Positions 3,185 to 12,399 of a stretch of DNA of 19,497 nucleotides are shown in pieces (the stretch's first letter is position 1; each line of letters starts with the position of its first letter). The DNA comes from a virus (lineage: Duplodnaviria > Heunggongvirae > Uroviricota > Caudoviricetes): IMG/VR virus record IMGVR_UViG_2600254985_000001; one strand, given 5' to 3'. Below the pieces are notes generated by a model. It did not search any database, had not been told where the DNA came from, and was given only the letters and a program-made list of their open reading frames with translations. The translations under genes were made by a program, and so were the position numbers.

Positions 3185-4286
3185 TTCCTACAAAAATAAG
3201 TCTATCATTGAACTCTGTTTTAACTCTATCTGCTATATATCCTGAATATAGCTTGCCCTCGTACCAAATATCTACTAAGTCATTAACATACAAAGGAAAA
3301 AGTTCATTTTGATTAAAGAATAACCTTGTGACGATTGTAGAGGGAGAAATTTCAACCTTAATAGTAGACAACTCAGGAGGGTTTCCGTGGTCATCTCTAT
3401 CATAAAACAATGTTTTGGTTGTCCTTACATCTGGCAAGTCTGTTCCGTCTCCATGATAAGTGCTATAATCAATGACATCTCCGTTATTTTTTGCTGTGTA
3501 CATTTTAGGAGGGTCTGTGTAGTCATCTGTTGCTTTATTTTTAACGAACACAACAGCAAAATTATAAGCTGAACGTTCTACTATTGTTTCCGTGTCCATT
3601 GTCACACTTTGCTTAATATCTACCCTTGTCGTGATTCTTTTTCTATTCCAGTTTCTTGAAGCAAAGTTAATGAATAACAAGTTTCTAGGGTCTGTTTCAG
3701 ATGGAGCGTGTTGAATGGTTGTAGTTGGTTGAAATTGAACCTTGGAAAATATCCTTTTTGCTACATCATGAGCTGATGAAGTTTCCGCTTTACGATTAAT
3801 CGTAGCCTTTCCAGCAAAGATACTTGAATCAAAGAAATAACCATAACTCATTAAATTATTTTTATTAGGGTCAATTAAATAATTAATTATACCAGAGTTT
3901 GTCTTTTTGGCTATTGCGTTTGGAACGTCAAGACTTTCAATCATTGCCCAAAAGTAGTTTTTTAACGTAGCTTTATTACTTTCGTCTACATCGGTCACAA
4001 GGTAAACCATATCTAAATTCAGTTTTTTCCTCTTACCTAGAGCTTCTTCAATTGGAACAACTTCAGGAAAAAGTACTTGAACAATATCGCCAACTTCTAC
4101 CGAAACGGTCAATGTAGCTGATGAAGTGTAAAGATAGCCTGTTTCCCACAGTTCGTAATCAATAACTTGACATCTTGCCTTTGGTATTGGAAGGCCTCTT
4201 TTTTCTTTTTTACCATTAGGCATTCTGAAATCAGATATATTGTAATAGTTAGGGTTAAAGTTATCATAAACGTTAGCTTCTAACAT
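3159..4286 (-). CDS. tal: tail-associated protein Tal (short form, no C-terminal lysin extension)
   Basis: 375-aa ORF directly downstream of Dit, with its start overlapping the Dit stop. The size matches my recollection of the short Tal of p2-like 936 phages. No peptidase or glycosidase motif noticed. Confidence 0.65.
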   Translation of the reverse strand: MLEANVYDNFNPNYYNISDFRMPNGKKEKRGLPIPKARCQVIDYELWETGYLYTSSATLTVSVEVGDIVQVLFPEVVPIEEALGKRKKLNLDMVYLVTDVDESNKATLKNYFWAMIESLDVPNAIAKKTNSGIINYLIDPNKNNLMSYGYFFDSSIFAGKATINRKAETSSAHDVAKRIFSKVQFQPTTTIQHAPSETDPRNLLFINFASRNWNRKRITTRVDIKQSVTMDTETIVERSAYNFAVVFVKNKATDDYTDPPKMYTAKNNGDVIDYSTYHGDGTDLPDVRTTKTLFYDRDDHGNPPELSTIKVEISPSTIVTRLFFNQNELFPLYVNDLVDIWYEGKLYSGYIADRVKTEFNDRLIFVGSGDKPNVI

Positions 4287-5182
4287 TAAATAAAGTCCGC
4301 CTTTCTCTTGATTTTAAGCTCTGCCTTACTTAAATTAACTAGCTCCATTTGACCTTTTTCAATTATACGAGTTCTGTATCGCTCAAAGTTCATTACAGGG
4401 AATAAGTTTAGTACAGTTGTACCCTTCCAGCCTTGATAAAATTCGTCATTTACATCTGTATTAATTAAAATATAATCTTGTACCTGTTCCGTCTTAAACA
4501 CAATTGCAGTATATTCGTTTCCAACATCGTCTAAAAATCTAACTCCAGCAGGTGTTTTAGGAAGTTTCGGATATAATACCCCCATAAAACTAAATATTTT
4601 TTCTTTTATTTCCCAACGGCTTAAACGGCCTATGTCACTTTCCCCATAATAAGTGTAAGAGGTTCCTTCGATATACTTATAGTCTCCTGGTGCGGTTCCT
4701 CCATAAATTTTAGACTTACCAGAAAGAACTTTACCATTTTCAATCATGTCAAAAGTTAAATTTTCGTAAGTATACCACTTTGTAACTACATCGAAAGTTA
4801 TCTTTTCGCTGAAAGTTCCGTTCTTACCGTAACCCTCTGTCTTTGTGACATCTGCTAAAGCTAAATCAGCATACACCTGAAAAATTTCTGTTTGATATTC
4901 AAGTGTAACGAATTTTTTGCTAAGAATATCGTTTACGAAGTCTTTCATTAATTGATAATTTTCTTCTAAACTTTCTCCAAACGTTTCTAGCTTAAACTCT
5001 ATTTGTGGTTGAGTAATTGAGCGTTTTCCCATTATTCCAATACCATTACTTTGCCAGATGTTATTAGTTGATTGTAACCCTAAATTAGAGGGCTGGTAAA
5101 ATCTAACTTTTCCATTTGTAACGTCCCAAACTTTGTCGTCTGTTCCGTCTAAGTTAGTATGTATTTTATACTGTCTTACCAT
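4286..5182 (-). CDS. dit: distal tail protein Dit
   Basis: 298-aa ORF immediately downstream of the tape measure gene (start overlaps the TMP stop). Canonical Dit position and size for 936-group phages, with no obvious inserted domain. Confidence 0.65.
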   Translation of the reverse strand: MVRQYKIHTNLDGTDDKVWDVTNGKVRFYQPSNLGLQSTNNIWQSNGIGIMGKRSITQPQIEFKLETFGESLEENYQLMKDFVNDILSKKFVTLEYQTEIFQVYADLALADVTKTEGYGKNGTFSEKITFDVVTKWYTYENLTFDMIENGKVLSGKSKIYGGTAPGDYKYIEGTSYTYYGESDIGRLSRWEIKEKIFSFMGVLYPKLPKTPAGVRFLDDVGNEYTAIVFKTEQVQDYILINTDVNDEFYQGWKGTTVLNLFPVMNFERYRTRIIEKGQMELVNLSKAELKIKRKADFI

Positions 5183-8172
5183 TAAGCCCTCCCTAGTTCA
5201 AATTCTCGTCTGATTGCACGCGCTAAGTTAGAAACATCTTGACCAGCACCGCCTTGCACGTTAAATGTGTTATATGTTCTATTGTCGCTTGATACACTGT
5301 TAGTGCTTAAACCGTAACCGCTAGAAGATAAATTGACATCTGTTAAGCCTACTACCATAGAACCTTTGAATAGTCCGCCAACTTTACTTGCAACCCAATC
5401 AATTGAACCTTTGATATTTTTAATTGTATCTGTTACACCTCCAAGAACGCTGTCTATTGTATCTTTGACTCCTCCAAATATTCCGCTAAAGAAGTCGCCA
5501 ATGCCCTTAAATACTCCTGTTATTGCATCCCAAGCATTTGAAGCAAATTTACCAAAAGCCTCGAATACTCCGCTAACTATATCTTTAGCACCGTCAAACG
5601 CTCCCTTAAAGAAATCAGCTACTCCGTTAAATACACCTGAAATTGCATCCCAAGCTTTTGAAGCAAAGCCACCAAGAGCGCTAAACACTCCGCTAACGAC
5701 ACTGCGAACAGAATTGAATATGCCACTAAAGAAGCCTGAAACTGCATTCCATATTGATGAAACTACTCCCCAAGCGCTAGAAGCAAAACTTCCGATTGCA
5801 CTAAATACTGTTGAAACTACTGATTTTACAGCGTTAAATATACCGCCAAAGAAGCCTGAAACTGCATTCCATACGCCAACCAGTATATCCCAAGCTGAAC
5901 CAGCAAAGCTACCTATGGCGCTAAATACTGTTGAAACTATTGAACTAACTGCGTTAAATATTACACCAAAGAAACCTGATATGCCGTTCCACGCTCCGAT
6001 AACTAATTGGTAAGCACCGCGAATAATAGCCAATATAAGTTGGAATGCTAAATTAATTACTGATCCAACTAACCCAAATATAGATTGAAAGAAACTAATT
6101 AAAGGTTGGAAAGTTGTAACAAACCAGTTATAAGCACCTGTCACTAAAGAAGCAATGGTTGTAAATACAGTTGTAACAACATTTACTATTCCGTCCCATA
6201 GCCCTGTGAAGAACCCTGTAACTCCTGCCCATGCTGTTTGAATACCAGTAACAACAGTTGTCCATAAAGTAGTAAAGAATGTTGTTATTCCGTTCCAAAT
6301 ATTTTGAACACCTTGTACAATTCCACTGAACCAATCGACTAAGCCTTGCCAAATGCCTTTAGCTCCGTCAACTGCTCCGTTCCATATATCAGCAAACCAT
6401 TGACCAATACCGCTAAAGAATGAAACTATTCCGTCCCATGCACTCTTTAAGAAGTCTACGAAACTACCCCAAACCTTTTTACCTGTTTCGGTTTGAGTGA
6501 AGAAGTAAACTAAACCAGCAACAATGGCTGCGATTGCTATGCCAAGAGCCACGAATGGATTCATAGCCATTACAGCATTGAAAGCTCCTTGTATAATTGT
6601 ACCAGCTTCAACAACCTTATTATATATCTCGACAGCCTTAATGATTCCATCAATAACTTTCAAAGCAACGAATACACTAGCCAAAGCAGCTAAAGCTACT
6701 TTTAAAGTATCTATTGCGCTTTTACTTTCACTAATTTTTTGCAGAAAATCAGCTATTTTTTTCGTGACTTCTGAAAATTTACCAGCAAATACAGCTATGC
6801 TTTTTGCTACGTTATCTATACTTGTTGCGTTTTTTGTTGTTTCTGTATTTATTCCAATAAATGAATTTATGACATTCCCTATAATAGAAACTATGGAACC
6901 AAATGCACTTTTTATGCTATCCCAAGCCTCTAAAAATGCTAAAGTGGCTGCATTTTCTTGCAGTTTTTGAAACAAGTCTTGGAAATACTTAACTACATTT
7001 GTTACAGCTTTACCAGCACTTTCGCCCCAGTCAGACATCTGGTCTATTAAGCCACTAATGATAGGTGTTAAAGCGTTCAAAGTAGGCACTAAAGCAATTG
7101 ACATTGTTTCGTTGAAGCTGTCCCACGCGTCCCCAATAGTTTTGATTCCACCGCCCGAACCTTTAGCCATTTTTTCCATAGCCTTGTTGAGCATATCCAT
7201 CGAAACAGCGCCTTTTGAAACAGCGTCATTAAAAGAACCGTATTGCTGTAATGAGGGGTTCATTTTCATAACAGTGTCTTTTAAAGAAGAACCAAGAGCT
7301 GTGTTGTTATCGGTTAATTGTCCAATATTTTCAGCCGTAACTTTACCAGCTGCCGACATTTGACCGTAAGACTGAACTACACCTTTAAGGTTTTCGCCAG
7401 TACCACCAAATGCTTGGTTAGCTTTTACTAATGCTTCTGTTTTACTGACCGCTTTTTTAGCGCTATCGCCTAAACCAATGAACGTTGTTGAAAGTTTTAA
7501 AGTATCTTCGGTATTTGCATTTGTATCTTTAGCAAGATTCTGCATAGATTTGCTTACATAGTCAAAGTCTTTTCCATTGCCTTTGAACTTCATTGTATTT
7601 TGCAATGAAATCATGGCTTTTTGAGTATCCATTGCGTTAGATACCCAGTCTTTTAAGCCGTTACCGACAGCACTAACAGCACTTGCACCGATTTGTCTGA
7701 ATGCACCAACAGCAATCTCTCTAAGACCGCTAAAGCGTGACTTCATGCCCTCAATTCCGCTATTAACGCCTTTAGTATCCATTTTAGCGTCAATGTTCCA
7801 AGAGCCTGAACTAATAGCACCCTCGACTTGCTTAATTTCGCCCTCTAGCCTATTAGCTTGTGTTTCTACTGTACCTAAATCTCTAGTAAGTTGTAGCCAT
7901 TTCTTTTGACCTGCTGACGTCCCTTTGTCAACCGTAGAAAGTTCTTCTTTTAATTTTGTTGCTTTGTCACGTGATAAGCCCAACTGCGTTTGTAAGTTCT
8001 TCTGCAATTGCGCCATTTTCCCGGTATTTGTGGGGTCAAGTTTTAGAGCTTCACGTAAGTTTTTAGCTTCTCCTCTAAGCCCTGACATTGCGGTATTAAC
8101 GCCTTTAAGTGAGTTCTCGAATTTCGTTGTATTACCGTATATCTCGACCTCAAATGTTGCATTACTTGCCAT
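5182..8172 (-). CDS. tmp: tail tape measure protein (TMP)
   Basis: 996-aa ORF. N-terminal coiled-coil-like region, central hydrophobic segments, and a C-terminal series of about 40-aa Gly/Phe/Trp-rich tandem repeats (GIFNAV.SVVSTVFSAIGSFA.SAW...). Its position between the chaperone genes and Dit is diagnostic. Confidence 0.9.
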   Translation of the reverse strand: MASNATFEVEIYGNTTKFENSLKGVNTAMSGLRGEAKNLREALKLDPTNTGKMAQLQKNLQTQLGLSRDKATKLKEELSTVDKGTSAGQKKWLQLTRDLGTVETQANRLEGEIKQVEGAISSGSWNIDAKMDTKGVNSGIEGMKSRFSGLREIAVGAFRQIGASAVSAVGNGLKDWVSNAMDTQKAMISLQNTMKFKGNGKDFDYVSKSMQNLAKDTNANTEDTLKLSTTFIGLGDSAKKAVSKTEALVKANQAFGGTGENLKGVVQSYGQMSAAGKVTAENIGQLTDNNTALGSSLKDTVMKMNPSLQQYGSFNDAVSKGAVSMDMLNKAMEKMAKGSGGGIKTIGDAWDSFNETMSIALVPTLNALTPIISGLIDQMSDWGESAGKAVTNVVKYFQDLFQKLQENAATLAFLEAWDSIKSAFGSIVSIIGNVINSFIGINTETTKNATSIDNVAKSIAVFAGKFSEVTKKIADFLQKISESKSAIDTLKVALAALASVFVALKVIDGIIKAVEIYNKVVEAGTIIQGAFNAVMAMNPFVALGIAIAAIVAGLVYFFTQTETGKKVWGSFVDFLKSAWDGIVSFFSGIGQWFADIWNGAVDGAKGIWQGLVDWFSGIVQGVQNIWNGITTFFTTLWTTVVTGIQTAWAGVTGFFTGLWDGIVNVVTTVFTTIASLVTGAYNWFVTTFQPLISFFQSIFGLVGSVINLAFQLILAIIRGAYQLVIGAWNGISGFFGVIFNAVSSIVSTVFSAIGSFAGSAWDILVGVWNAVSGFFGGIFNAVKSVVSTVFSAIGSFASSAWGVVSSIWNAVSGFFSGIFNSVRSVVSGVFSALGGFASKAWDAISGVFNGVADFFKGAFDGAKDIVSGVFEAFGKFASNAWDAITGVFKGIGDFFSGIFGGVKDTIDSVLGGVTDTIKNIKGSIDWVASKVGGLFKGSMVVGLTDVNLSSSGYGLSTNSVSSDNRTYNTFNVQGGAGQDVSNLARAIRREFELGRA

Positions 8173-8684
8173 TACATACCCTTTCTTTTACGCCTTTTCT
8201 CTTTTTCTTTTTCCTCTTTCTTTTTCTCTGCAATAAGTTCGATTATTTTATAAACAAGTTCTAGTTCCATTTCCATGAACTGTGTTATATCAATTTCATT
8301 ATTGCCCAAAACAGTCAAAAGTTCTAAAGTTTTATTTTCCCTTACAGTATCTTTCTTTTTCTTAATCAATGAACTAGAAGAAAAGAAGACTGTATCGTCT
8401 TCCGTTTCCTCTTTTTCTTTAATAAAAACAGTTTTACAGAAGATATTGATTAACTCGTTAGTTGTAGGAAGCTCTGTTTTATCATCTAAGGCGTTTTGCA
8501 TTCCTCCGTTACAATCTACCCAAAGTATCAATAACTTGTCTGTAAAGCTCTCCATTTGCTCTGTAAAGTCATCAGGAATATATCCAGCGACAAAAGAATT
8601 TTGTAGGTCTGCAAAGTCTTTTAAATCTGTAATAAAGTCTGAACCAGTTAGTTCTAAGTATCTAATTGCATGTTTTAAAATCAT
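8172..8684 (-). CDS. tail assembly chaperone-like protein (170 aa, acidic with a basic C-terminal tail)
   Basis: ORF immediately upstream of the TMP, with its stop overlapping the TMP start. GAAAGGA ribosome-binding site upstream of its ATG. Position corresponds to the gpG/gpT chaperone slot. Confidence 0.5.
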   Translation of the reverse strand: MILKHAIRYLELTGSDFITDLKDFADLQNSFVAGYIPDDFTEQMESFTDKLLILWVDCNGGMQNALDDKTELPTTNELINIFCKTVFIKEKEETEDDTVFFSSSSLIKKKKDTVRENKTLELLTVLGNNEIDITQFMEMELELVYKIIELIAEKKKEEKEKEKRRKRKGM

Positions 8685-8703
8685 TTACAGTCCTTTCAGC
8701 TCA

Positions 8704-8979
8704 TTAAATTTCTTTCTGCCATAATTCGACAAGTTCTTTAAGCCCTTTACCGTCAGTATCGAACTCGAAGCTAGAACGGAAGTCAGAGAAGTCACTTTTA
8801 GCTTTTACAATGTTATCTTGAAAAAGAGCCAAGTATAGACCATATTGAACGAACTCCATTAGGTCAGTAATTTCTCCGTCTTCTTTTTTAAGTTCTGTAT
8901 CCATTGCCTTTTGTTGTTGGAAAAGGTCTTTACCTGTAATCATTTTAAATTTACGTGCTGTACTCAATTGTTTTGCCAT
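8704..8979 (-). CDS. tail assembly chaperone-like or small tail protein (91 aa)
   Basis: ORF between the major tail protein gene and the downstream chaperone ORF. Assigned on synteny only. Confidence 0.45.
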   Translation of the reverse strand: MAKQLSTARKFKMITGKDLFQQQKAMDTELKKEDGEITDLMEFVQYGLYLALFQDNIVKAKSDFSDFRSSFEFDTDGKGLKELVELWQKEI

Positions 8980-9016
8980 TTTATTTTATATTCCTTTACT
9001 TAATCTATTTTTAGTC

Positions 9017-9922
9017 TTATGAATGGTCAGTTACTGAAACTCCTGCGGTAACATCTTTATAACCCTCAGCGGAGAACTTTACGTTATAGGCACCTGGAGC
9101 AAGTTGTCCGTTTGTTGCTACTTTTCCATTTGCGTCATTAATCACTGATGTTACTTTTACAGTTCCACCATTAGAATCTTTCAAAGTGGCAGGCACTACG
9201 ATTCTTCCGTCATTATGACCCTTTGTAGCAGTAGTCACATTAGGAATAACAGGAGCTACGAGTGTAATTCCACCAGCTAGAACTGTATCAGGTTGCATAA
9301 TGAATAAACCACTTTCCATTTTCTTGACGAAATCTTTTGCTTGTTCTCCCCAAATTTCGTACTCAATAGCAGGGACTTTTTTACCGCCATTCAAATAAAT
9401 ATCTGACTCAGTCGCTTGTACTGCCAAAGTCCATTGGATAGGGTCTACACCGTCAACTGAATCTGTTTCTGATTCTTTTGTTGCTTCTGCTGTTGGTCTC
9501 AAATTTGGATAAACGACTACGCGATAACCGTCAACAAATTCCCCTGTAACTTTATCACGCTTACGCCCTTTAATAAGGTATTGAACACATTTCGTTTTCC
9601 AATTACCAGTAGGAGACCAACCCAAGCCATTTTCTGTTCTTTGTTGACCTAAAATGTCTTCTTTAAGCGATTGGTCTGTTTGAATGAATACCATTTCGCC
9701 TTGAAGTAAGGTAGCACCTTTTTTCACTCCATGGTCTGGCACGTCATCAGCTGGATAGCTGTTAGTCTCCGCTTGGTCTTCCATTGCGCCAACTGATACT
9801 AAACCAGTTACAATTTTATGGTTAGTAAACTCTGGTTTTCCGTTACTTCCCTTGGCCATATCAGCTACGATTAGAGCTTCATTACCAAAGAAAATCTCAC
9901 GTGAGTTATAATCTAATTTCAT
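9017..9922 (-). CDS. mtp: major tail protein (MTP) with C-terminal Ig-like domain
   Basis: 301-aa ORF upstream of the chaperone/TMP genes. The C-terminal approximately 90 residues (…VATNGQLAPGAYNVKFSAEGYKDVTAGVSVTDHS) resemble a bacterial Ig-like decoration domain. AAAGGA ribosome-binding site upstream. Confidence 0.75.
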   Translation of the reverse strand: MKLDYNSREIFFGNEALIVADMAKGSNGKPEFTNHKIVTGLVSVGAMEDQAETNSYPADDVPDHGVKKGATLLQGEMVFIQTDQSLKEDILGQQRTENGLGWSPTGNWKTKCVQYLIKGRKRDKVTGEFVDGYRVVVYPNLRPTAEATKESETDSVDGVDPIQWTLAVQATESDIYLNGGKKVPAIEYEIWGEQAKDFVKKMESGLFIMQPDTVLAGGITLVAPVIPNVTTATKGHNDGRIVVPATLKDSNGGTVKVTSVINDANGKVATNGQLAPGAYNVKFSAEGYKDVTAGVSVTDHS

Positions 9923-10029: not shown

Positions 10030-12399
10030 TTAATCAATATCAATATTCCACATGCAAACAGGATATATTAAATCTTGTAACTGTGACATAATTTGAGCCA
10101 TTGAGTATTTGTTAGGGTGTATCGATCCATAAGTAACGCCATCTGAATTTAAAGCTGACCATGTTTTTATAGACATATCATTATGTGCGTAAGTTCTCGC
10201 TGTAAAATCAGCAAACGCACACTCGTATTTACGACATAATTCTTGTATTATAGGTCTAACATTTTGAAACCACTCTACATAGGTTCTCCCAGTATTATAA
10301 ACTGTTCCAACTGTTGGCAAAGTGATGATAATAGCCAAATCTTTTACGGTTTTATTATAAGCTGGTCTACCATTAACACTTGTATTTCCTCTTATTCTTT
10401 TCAATCCTTCTTCCATATTTGTTTTAAATAAGTTTAATCTTTGTTCTAGTGTTAACCCAGCGAACTTCGTATGGTTTTTATCAGCGTCATTCATTCCCCA
10501 TCCAATTATTAAAAGGTCTGGGTTATGTTCCATCGATGTTTGTAAAAAACCATTAGGGTATTTTTGTAAATAGTAAGGCAAAGCATAAGTTGGGTTTCCT
10601 ACCCATTCATTCGTATTTCTACCACCAAAACCATTGTTTAGTATTGATAATTTTTTTAAATCATAATTCCCTGCCTTCATTATTTTTTTAAGTGCATAAT
10701 CTTTCATGCCAAAAAAAGTATCTTGAACCGATGATAGTGGAGCGTAACCAGCAGTTATACTATCTCCGTCTAATGCTATTGATATATTATTTACACCGTC
10801 ATAAATTTTCTCATACCAATGCTCTAAATATTCATGTCCCCAAATAGGTGTAACTGGATATTTGTAATAATCAAACGCAGTAGTAGTTGTTGTAACAGTG
10901 TCATTACTTACTGACGGGGTATAATTTACCATTTTTTGAAAACTATCTAAATTACTCGGTACGTTGTTAGTGGATGAAGTGTAATTTAAAACTTGCATGT
11001 CTGCTAATATCATGTCAATATCAGATTGTGTAAGAGGTTTTAATCTAACATACCCTTGAATAGCATATATTCCATTTGCGTTTATATTTTTTTCGTTTGT
11101 AACAGTAACACTCTCACATTTCAAAGTATTGCTATTAAATTTAACTAATTCTAATCTTAAATATTTTGAGTTAGTATATTTTAAAATAGAACCCTTATTT
11201 AATGTCATTTTTTGAGTTGAAAAGTATGTCTTGTTAATATCTTTTGAAGCACTACCAACACTATATTTTCCATATGTTACAGTCAAGTCAATATCAACTA
11301 ACATTCTATCTTTGAGAAATTTTAATTCATCTTCAATAATGTCTATTTTGTCTGTAGTTGAAATATATGATGTAAAAATAAAATTTGATTTTGTCGTTGC
11401 AACATCTTCTCCCATTTTTCCAAAACCAGTTTTGGCAGTTTGAAAAGCAATTTTGCCAATATGCTTTATACTCATTCCATTTTTTACTTCGCCATAGCGT
11501 AAAAAAGCACCATTTTTATCATATAAAAAATATTTATAAAGTGTATAATTAGTTGGATTTTTAATATTTAATTCAACAGTACCGCTAATATCAAACTTTA
11601 CAGTTCTATTCATAGACTCATTAATAACTGTTTCGCCATTATTATCATTATATTTACCAACTTCCCAAGCAACATTTAAAGTTGTTGGTGTTAAACTGTT
11701 CGCTTGTGCTTCGGTAGCCTTTGCCATTGCATTTTTGGCTTCACTTTCAGCTTGTTTTGCTGTTTCTTGAGCAGTTGTTACATTTTGATTTGTGATTAAT
11801 AAATCTGATTGTTCAGCTTTTGTTGAAATTGCAATCCCTTGCCTGCTGACATCAGCTTGTAAGTTGTTCAAGTCTGTTTGATTGGCTTTAAGCTCAATAT
11901 TGCTCTTGTTTGATTCAGTTTGAGCATGTAAGTCATTCAACTCACTACGCATTACTTGTGGCATATTTTCCAATAATAATTTTGTAAAATCATCAATCTT
12001 ATTATTTACTTCTTGAGCTAAATCTGTAACCGTAGAATTATCTGATATAAACGTAAGGTTCTTGCTGACGATAACCTGCTCTTTATCTTCATTGAGAAGT
12101 ATTAAGTTCGCTTCAATAACTCCAGTTTCTGTCATTTCGGTAGGAATTACTAAAATAAACTCTCCCTTAGTTAAGTTTTCAGGAGGAATCATAACAAAAC
12201 CTGAATTACTGCTATTAGTATATTGATATGTAAGTTTTAATGAATGGCCAGTCAAATCAATTTCGCCTCCATTATCAAGTATTTTAATTGACAATGTTCT
12301 AGCGTTGACGTCGCCTTGCATTATTTGAATTGGTTGTGGGAAGCCTTTATTGACCGTATCCCATACAATCGCTCTATTTTTAAAATTATCTAAACTCAT
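10030..12399 (-). CDS. large accessory virion protein (789 aa): N-terminal domain, coiled-coil stalk, central beta-rich region, C-terminal SGNH/GDSL hydrolase domain; candidate neck passage structure (collar-whisker) protein
   Basis: Lies between the head-tail joining genes and mtp. Residues about 140..240 are heptad-like and Ala/Gln/Glu-rich. The C-terminal region has SGNH blocks: ALDGDSITAGY (Ser547 codon at 10759..10761), NNGFGG, GWGMNDA, and DGVTYGSIHP. Confidence 0.7.
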   Translation of the reverse strand: MSLDNFKNRAIVWDTVNKGFPQPIQIMQGDVNARTLSIKILDNGGEIDLTGHSLKLTYQYTNSSNSGFVMIPPENLTKGEFILVIPTEMTETGVIEANLILLNEDKEQVIVSKNLTFISDNSTVTDLAQEVNNKIDDFTKLLLENMPQVMRSELNDLHAQTESNKSNIELKANQTDLNNLQADVSRQGIAISTKAEQSDLLITNQNVTTAQETAKQAESEAKNAMAKATEAQANSLTPTTLNVAWEVGKYNDNNGETVINESMNRTVKFDISGTVELNIKNPTNYTLYKYFLYDKNGAFLRYGEVKNGMSIKHIGKIAFQTAKTGFGKMGEDVATTKSNFIFTSYISTTDKIDIIEDELKFLKDRMLVDIDLTVTYGKYSVGSASKDINKTYFSTQKMTLNKGSILKYTNSKYLRLELVKFNSNTLKCESVTVTNEKNINANGIYAIQGYVRLKPLTQSDIDMILADMQVLNYTSSTNNVPSNLDSFQKMVNYTPSVSNDTVTTTTTAFDYYKYPVTPIWGHEYLEHWYEKIYDGVNNISIALDGDSITAGYAPLSSVQDTFFGMKDYALKKIMKAGNYDLKKLSILNNGFGGRNTNEWVGNPTYALPYYLQKYPNGFLQTSMEHNPDLLIIGWGMNDADKNHTKFAGLTLEQRLNLFKTNMEEGLKRIRGNTSVNGRPAYNKTVKDLAIIITLPTVGTVYNTGRTYVEWFQNVRPIIQELCRKYECAFADFTARTYAHNDMSIKTWSALNSDGVTYGSIHPNKYSMAQIMSQLQDLIYPVCMWNIDID

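Follow-up and report, generated by a model that had tools for sequence, protein, structure and literature searches.

Two separate genes, probably expressed without programmed frameshifting, in the tail-assembly-chaperone slot of a Skunavirus Lactococcus phage

In lambda-type pairs of tail-assembly-chaperone genes, the second open reading frame (ORF) extends over the 3' end of the first, in the -1 or, rarely, the +1 frame, and has no start of its own; a slippery heptamer is found close to where the first ORF ends. Tail assembly depends on both products, neither of which occurs in virions, and the long product is made in amounts of a few per cent of the short. The -1 programmed frameshift of the lambda gpG/gpGT pair was reportedly described as conserved by Xu, Hendrix and Duda in 2004 and 2014. 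The present analysis concerns the corresponding slot in a stretch of tailed-phage DNA of 19,497 nucleotides (IMG/VR record IMGVR_UViG_2600254985_000001, hereafter the window), in which two ORFs of 91 and 170 amino acids, termed here ORF12 and ORF13, lie on the minus strand between the gene for the major tail (tube) protein and that for the tape measure protein (TMP).

Two further systems are close to this locus. Phage TP901-1 has the same host genus, and its gpG/gpT pair occupies the same slot and has the same presumed job as ORF12/ORF13. There, a canonical -1 frameshift occurs at GGGAAAG, gpT is not translated independently, polymerisation of the tube needs both the gpG and the gpT products, and a permanent gpG-gpT fusion abolishes infectivity, with a lysogeny frequency of 0 (Stockdale et al. 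2015, PMC4493119). Since the fusion loses infectivity, the ratio of the two products evidently matters in TP901-1. In contrast to gpT, the Skunavirus ORF13 is an independent cistron. The second system comprises HK97 gp13 and other spiral- or ring-forming tail-assembly chaperones (Pell et al. 2013), which, to the extent that reviews relay this work, form a structurally defined helical class that also takes in ORF12; gp13, however, is paired with a frameshift product, whereas spiral formation by the N-terminal domain of ORF13 is a proposal.

We propose that the tail-assembly-chaperone slot of this phage consists of two independent cistrons without a programmed frameshift, and that ORF13 is the probable counterpart of gpGT (a rough probability of 0.8 for this reading as a whole). 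The identity of the upstream gene is the firmest part of the comparison. From residue 2 to residue 91, ORF12 is identical to PDB entry 3D8L ("ORF12" of phage p2), and residues 3-91 score 156.9 bits (1e-46) against Pfam family PF20962 (Phage_p2_ORF12), for which the cut-off is 27. By this sequence match the 91-residue ORF is p2 ORF12, the crystallised TMP chaperone, found in the same place upstream of ORF13 and TMP and with no difference between the two; the label "chaperone slot" given in a first-pass annotation of the window was thus well chosen. Review passages citing Siponen et al. 2009 likewise name crystallised p2 ORF12 as the p2 tail chaperone. When read on the minus strand, the 19.5-kb window as a whole shares 98.4% identity with the opening 19.5 kb of Lactococcus phage JG7; some 260 further Skunavirus (936-group) records match at least 80% of the window, and 375 phage records match the chaperone-gene region at 90-99% identity. 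Judged by these matches, the window is the late operon of a Skunavirus (936/p2-like) Lactococcus phage, carried on the minus strand.

ORF13 (ATG 8684..8682, stop TAA 8174..8172, minus strand) is separated from ORF12 by 19 nt and stands in the +1 frame relative to it, with no overlap. Its Shine-Dalgarno (SD) sequence, GAAAGGA, forms a stronger predicted duplex than that of ORF12 (Table 1), and independent initiation of ORF13 is therefore expected. The junction was compared with that of 83 close relatives, taken from IMG/VR and GenBank. All 83 have the 19-nt spacer, the +1 frame and a stop directly before the ORF13 ATG (TAA; TGA in 2), and almost every one has GA[AG]AGG[AG] as the SD, with AAAAGGA in a single relative. 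The second stop that adjoins the end of ORF12 is also kept in most (TGA; TAA in 3; CGA in one). The signals listed in the first-pass annotation, i.e., the TAA that ends the 91-residue ORF at 8704..8706 and, for the 170-residue ORF, the GAAAGGA, the ATG at 8682..8684 and the in-frame TAA directly upstream, are all present on the minus strand. Its claim that the two ORFs are independent rather than a frameshift-fused pair agrees with the strong SD of ORF13 itself, its conserved N-terminal Met and the variable spacer and frame seen among more distant relatives (see below).

The annotation had also suggested a search for slippery heptamers with a downstream structure. An exhaustive scan for in-frame X_XXY_YYZ heptamers in both ORFs found none anywhere in ORF12 and four in ORF13, three of which reach stops after 1-15 codons, while one leads into the TMP frame. 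The -1 frame of ORF12 contains many stops. With neither a heptamer nor an open -1 frame, a -1 frameshift out of ORF12 was rejected, and the earlier remark that no extended overlap suited to such a shift is apparent was borne out by the 19-nt gap, the +1 frame and the closed -1 frame alike. Transcriptional slippage was rejected as well, the longest homopolymer in the scan being A6. The junction RNA (8770..8630) is no better folded than 200 shuffled controls (z +0.72; 159 of the 200 at least as stable), and an Rfam search of the junction gave no family at E<=1; a stimulatory structure or a known RNA family at the junction was accordingly discarded.

A fusion of the two products could in principle arise in a more cryptic manner. 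The frame of ORF13 is open for 39 codons 5' of its ATG (8804..8685), overlapping the 3' end of ORF12 before a TAA ends it, and if ribosomes shifted by +1 shortly before the end of ORF12, entered this stretch and then read through the TAA or hopped over it, ORF12 would be joined to ORF13. In most long-tailed phages a G-T fusion does occur, TP901-1 being an example. Such a route would nevertheless need two rare events in series, with no stimulatory structure at the junction, and in AT-rich DNA 39 open codons in a row are nothing remarkable. Moreover, the stop before the ATG has varied among the 83 relatives only from TAA to TGA, and other lineages have ORF13 in frame 0 or -1 and stops within the spacer. 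Because of the TAA, a late +1 shift in ORF12 would gain only a few residues, and a +1 shift into the ORF13 frame was rejected in view of the conserved stop. We consider cryptic recoding of this type exceedingly improbable; as far as the sequence can tell, there is no slippery site or open alternative frame able to give a G-T fusion.

The same question was examined in divergent lineages, in which ORF13 shares 38-63% identity with that of the window and which derive from metagenomes, Lactococcus genomes and the L. garvieae phage PLG-II. The order tube, ORF12-like, ORF13-like, TMP occurs in every lineage examined, but the junction differs from one to the next. The spacer is 14 nt with ORF13 in the -1 frame relative to ORF12 in L091/L092, 21 nt with frame 0 and a GTG start in L093/L094, 34 nt with frame +1 in PLG-II (L087), 49 nt with frame +1 in L005/L006, and 62 nt with frame -1 in L002/L089/L090. 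In-frame stops occur within the spacer of every lineage except the L002 group, where the -1 frame of ORF13 is open through the 62-nt spacer into ORF12; this group was considered as a frameshift case and rejected, since it has no canonical heptamer and the other lineages differ. A spacer of 14-62 nt and frames of 0, +1 and -1 across six lineages exclude a conserved programmed frameshift. The first-pass annotation had left two options, a shift site elsewhere or a lineage that does without one; the second is favoured, in that no usable heptamer or frame exists and the six lineages vary in both frame and spacer.

The start of ORF13 itself is well conserved. The N-terminus reads M-[ILK]-L-[KR] in all full-length members, i.e., 29 of the 31 sequences of the ORF13 family alignment (the other two start at an internal Met), and seven more full-length representatives of 50% clusters begin M-[IK]-L. 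Residues 1-152 are recovered by tblastn as a single uninterrupted piece in 378 of 380 phage records. The family as a whole comprises 25 cluster representatives at E<=0.001 among 1.84 billion proteins, and all members with a named source organism come from Lactococcus or Lactococcus phages; the ORF12 family is somewhat larger, with 175 matches at 90% clustering. The slot is functionally of the G/GT type but lies outside the frameshift family, as there is no -1 overlap lacking its own start, no slippery heptamer at the end of ORF12 and no frame conserved among relatives.

In several of the divergent relatives the ORF12-ORF13 spacer contains a stable hairpin of -16.5 to -25 kcal/mol (L002 3948-3970, also L089 and L090; L005 ~3960-3990; L087 ~2455-2490), which in the L002 group is followed by a T7 run and resembles a terminator. 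The 19-nt spacer of the window has no such hairpin (-0.6 kcal/mol). In the relatives that possess it, the hairpin could lower the expression of ORF13 relative to ORF12 and thereby provide another way to an unequal G:GT-like ratio.

The fourth ORF13 heptamer, A_AAG_GGT, is the only in-frame X_XXY_YYZ of both ORFs with an open -1 frame, and a shift at this point would fuse ORF13 to TMP with the junction peptide ...KRKRKGYVMASN... The motif occurs in about 80 of the 83 close relatives and also in L093/L094. It coincides, however, with the TMP SD (GAAAGGG, 6 nt before the ATG) and with Lys-Gly codons, which already explains its conservation. It is lost in 2 of the close relatives, which have AGG AAG GGT; in L005, L087 and L091 TMP lies in the frame of ORF13, behind stop codons, and L002 has a stop in the TMP frame, which precludes any fusion. 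Since the frame relation between ORF13 and TMP is not conserved in the other lineages, A_AAG_GGT is probably not functional. We know of no precedent for a fusion of a chaperone to TMP, and we rejected this one as very improbable.

How, then, might a gpGT-like product be made from a gene of its own? ORF13 matches phrog_1421, the Skunavirus ORF13 family, over its entire length (residues 1-170; 377 bits), this being its only family match, and sequence searches of Pfam and the PDB with ORF13 gave none. It conforms to the family in its size (150-170 residues), its two conserved domains and its position directly upstream of the TMP gene. A template-free AlphaFold2 model, built from the 31-sequence alignment, comprises a five-helix N-terminal domain, a disordered acidic linker and a helical C-terminal domain with a basic tail (Table 1), and this two-domain layout is common to all 29 full-length members. 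The helices of the C-terminal domain span residues 118-128, 133-136 and 141-168, and its invariant residues are N117, L122, Q135 and E140; the domain has no match in Pfam, the PDB or BFVD.

In the structural comparison of ORF13 with 48,164 chains, the single best match was ORF12. At the sequence level, hhalign aligned the ORF12 family with the N-terminal domain of ORF13 at E 0.004 (0.0015 with enlarged alignments); the score was higher than that of every column-shuffled control (300 and 150), and the C-terminal part of ORF13, used as a control, scored 7.9 vs 22.2 for the N-terminal domain. Residues 5-45 of ORF12 and 3-48 of ORF13 align in register, sharing A-x-[KR]-[FY]-x-x-[IL]-T-G-x-D-[LF] ... 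T-[DE]-x-[MY]-E, although global identity is only about 20-21% (20% over 80 columns). We infer that the N-terminal domain of ORF13 (residues 1-84) is a diverged paralogue of ORF12; in other words, the ORF12 fold appears to occur a second time, in the product of the downstream gene.

ORF13 may, of course, not be a G/GT-type chaperone at all. It could be a minor virion protein, a tail-initiation protein or something else, and its likeness to ORF12 a generic match between small helical bundles. The labels of ORF13 in database records, "structural protein" or "hypothetical protein", are of some relevance here, as the former misfits a chaperone absent from virions, but we found no experimental basis for it. 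Two other points also weigh against a gpGT-like role: nothing in Pfam, the PDB or BFVD ties the C-terminal domain to any known gpT domain, and the searchable literature holds no results on ORF13 expression, stoichiometry or interactions. On the other hand, ORF13 accompanies ORF12 immediately before the TMP gene in all lineages examined, a neighbour's product is very unlikely to emerge by chance as the top match of 48,164 chains, the in-register sequence similarity beats all shuffles, and reviews by the p2 structural groups call both ORFs of the slot tail chaperones. The invariable pairing and the rank-1 structural match make a non-chaperone role of ORF13 the less likely alternative, and we regard it as unlikely.

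If ORF13 is indeed the functional counterpart of gpGT, it would be produced without recoding, as an ORF12-like (G-like) domain, a linker and a basic helical T-like module; no recoding would be needed, because the protein has its own diverged ORF12-type fold at the N-terminus. Through its G-like domain, ORF13 would become part of the ORF12 spiral around TMP, and the C-terminal domain, by analogy with lambda and TP901-1, may recruit the tail-tube protein. The ratio of ORF12 to ORF13 would be set by independent initiation and not by the efficiency of a frameshift. Downstream, translation of TMP would be coupled to termination of ORF13 via the TAATG overlap; as this is the usual coupling geometry, TMP synthesis may depend on translation of ORF13.

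Compared with lambda gpG/gpGT, the locus is alike in having two genes between the tail-tube and tape-measure genes, the shorter with a helical product that coats TMP, and in that its longer product would join a G-type domain to an extra C-terminal module. It differs in that Skunavirus has neither the overlap nor the slippery heptamer, ORF13 having instead the +1 frame and its own SD and ATG; in that the G-type domain is encoded twice (~21% identity to ORF12) and not shared by recoding; and in that the C-terminal domain of ORF13 has no link to gpT in sequence or fold. We lean slightly towards an evolutionary account of these differences, whereby Skunaviruses and their relatives swapped the otherwise near-universal G/GT programmed frameshift for a duplicated G-type domain. 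ORF13 would then be a separate G'-linker-T protein that sits on the ORF12 spiral and recruits the tube protein, its ratio to ORF12 being governed by independent initiation and, in the divergent relatives, perhaps by the spacer hairpin.

The tail chaperone locus as such is not new: ORF12 is a PDB entry, two separate coding sequences (CDS) are annotated in ~380 phage genomes, and the absence of a frameshift is ordinary for the well-studied 936-type phage group. In the accessible literature ORF12 has been characterised and ORF13 has not; none of the accessible papers discusses ORF13 or the missing frameshift in 936 phages, and the ribosome-profiling paper on phage sk1 covers early infection only. 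What may be new is confined to the interpretation of ORF13 as an ORF12-like domain plus a T-like module, which we did not find in the searchable literature.

For annotation, the chaperone slot of Skunavirus-like phages should be treated as two ordinary CDS, with no forced frameshift join. It is a clean counter-example, in the genetically editable model phage p2, to the rule of a conserved translational frameshift in long-tailed phages. If ORF13 does combine a G-like domain with a T-like module, p2 would be a simple system in which to ask why the G:GT ratio matters, and whether sharing of the G domain, by recoding or by duplication, is the real requirement. If duplication did replace the frameshift, the group would represent a natural experiment in which the frameshift is one of several routes to a G:GT pair.

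Table 1. Coordinates of the features in and around the chaperone slot (positions in the window)
Feature	Coordinates	Strand	Basis
ORF12, 91 aa, tape-measure chaperone, gpG analogue; ATG 8979..8977, TAA 8706..8704	8704..8979	-	3D8L identity, PF20962
SD-like AAAGGA of ORF12, ~12 nt 5' of ATG	8992..8997	-	Duplex with 16S 3' end, -6.5 kcal/mol
Second in-frame stop, TGA, adjoining ORF12 TAA	8701..8703	-	Sequence
ORF13 SD, GAAAGGA, 6 nt 5' of ATG	8691..8697	-	Duplex -9.3 kcal/mol, spacing 5
TAA closing ORF13 frame, adjoining ATG on its 5' side	8685..8687	-	Sequence; stop in 83/83 relatives
ORF13 residues 1-84, five-helix N-terminal domain, ORF12-like fold	8433..8684	-	Predicted local distance difference test (pLDDT) ~90, AlphaFold2
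ORF13 residues 85-114, disordered acidic Ser-/Lys-rich linker	8343..8432	-	pLDDT <50; most variable part of family alignment
ORF13 residues 115-170, helical C-terminal domain, conserved, ending in a basic tail; candidate gpT-like module	8175..8342	-	pLDDT ~80-86
A_AAG_GGT, formal -1 heptamer at ORF13 end opening into TMP frame; better read as TMP SD (GAAAGGG)	8178..8184	-	Heptamer scan
TAATG, overlap of ORF13 stop and TMP start, translational-coupling geometry	8170..8174	-	Sequence; all close relatives have TAATG or, in a few, TGATG
Major tail (tube) protein gene, upstream border of slot	9017..9922	-	Pfam L_lac_phage_MSP 1e-116 and Phage_tube_C
TMP gene, 996 aa, downstream border of slot	5182..8172	-	Pfam TMP_3

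Some metagenomic variants of ORF13 are broken, and these coincide with the domain boundary. In P0029 (which stands for 55 sequences), P0032 and P0038 a frameshift falls precisely where the linker between the two domains begins; in others of the set, which also includes P0023, P0027 and P0028, the N-terminal domain is joined to an unrelated hydrophobic sequence. A frameshift within ORF13 at the linker was considered and rejected, since the ORF is intact in 378 of 380 isolate genomes and tblastn of the shifted tails matched only the 1990 F4-1 record. With the isolates intact, the frameshifted variants are best taken as assembly or sequencing errors, or as rare mutants. A terminator-like hairpin (8403..8384, minus strand; GGAAGACGATACAGTCTTCT then TTTCTTCT) also lies inside ORF13 at the linker start. 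The region contains 2 terminator-like sites compared to 1.2 expected by shuffling, which is not above expectation.

The remainder of the operon, as identified by Pfam scans, has the canonical p2-type layout, in the minus-strand order tail terminator, neck passage structure, tail tube, ORF12, ORF13, TMP, Dit, Tal, receptor-binding protein and endolysin. The neck passage structure protein (789 residues; 10030..12399, minus strand) has a BppU_N domain and, at its C-terminus, a GDSL/SGNH hydrolase domain (Pfam 6e-11), an architecture that suggests an esterase activity displayed at the phage neck.

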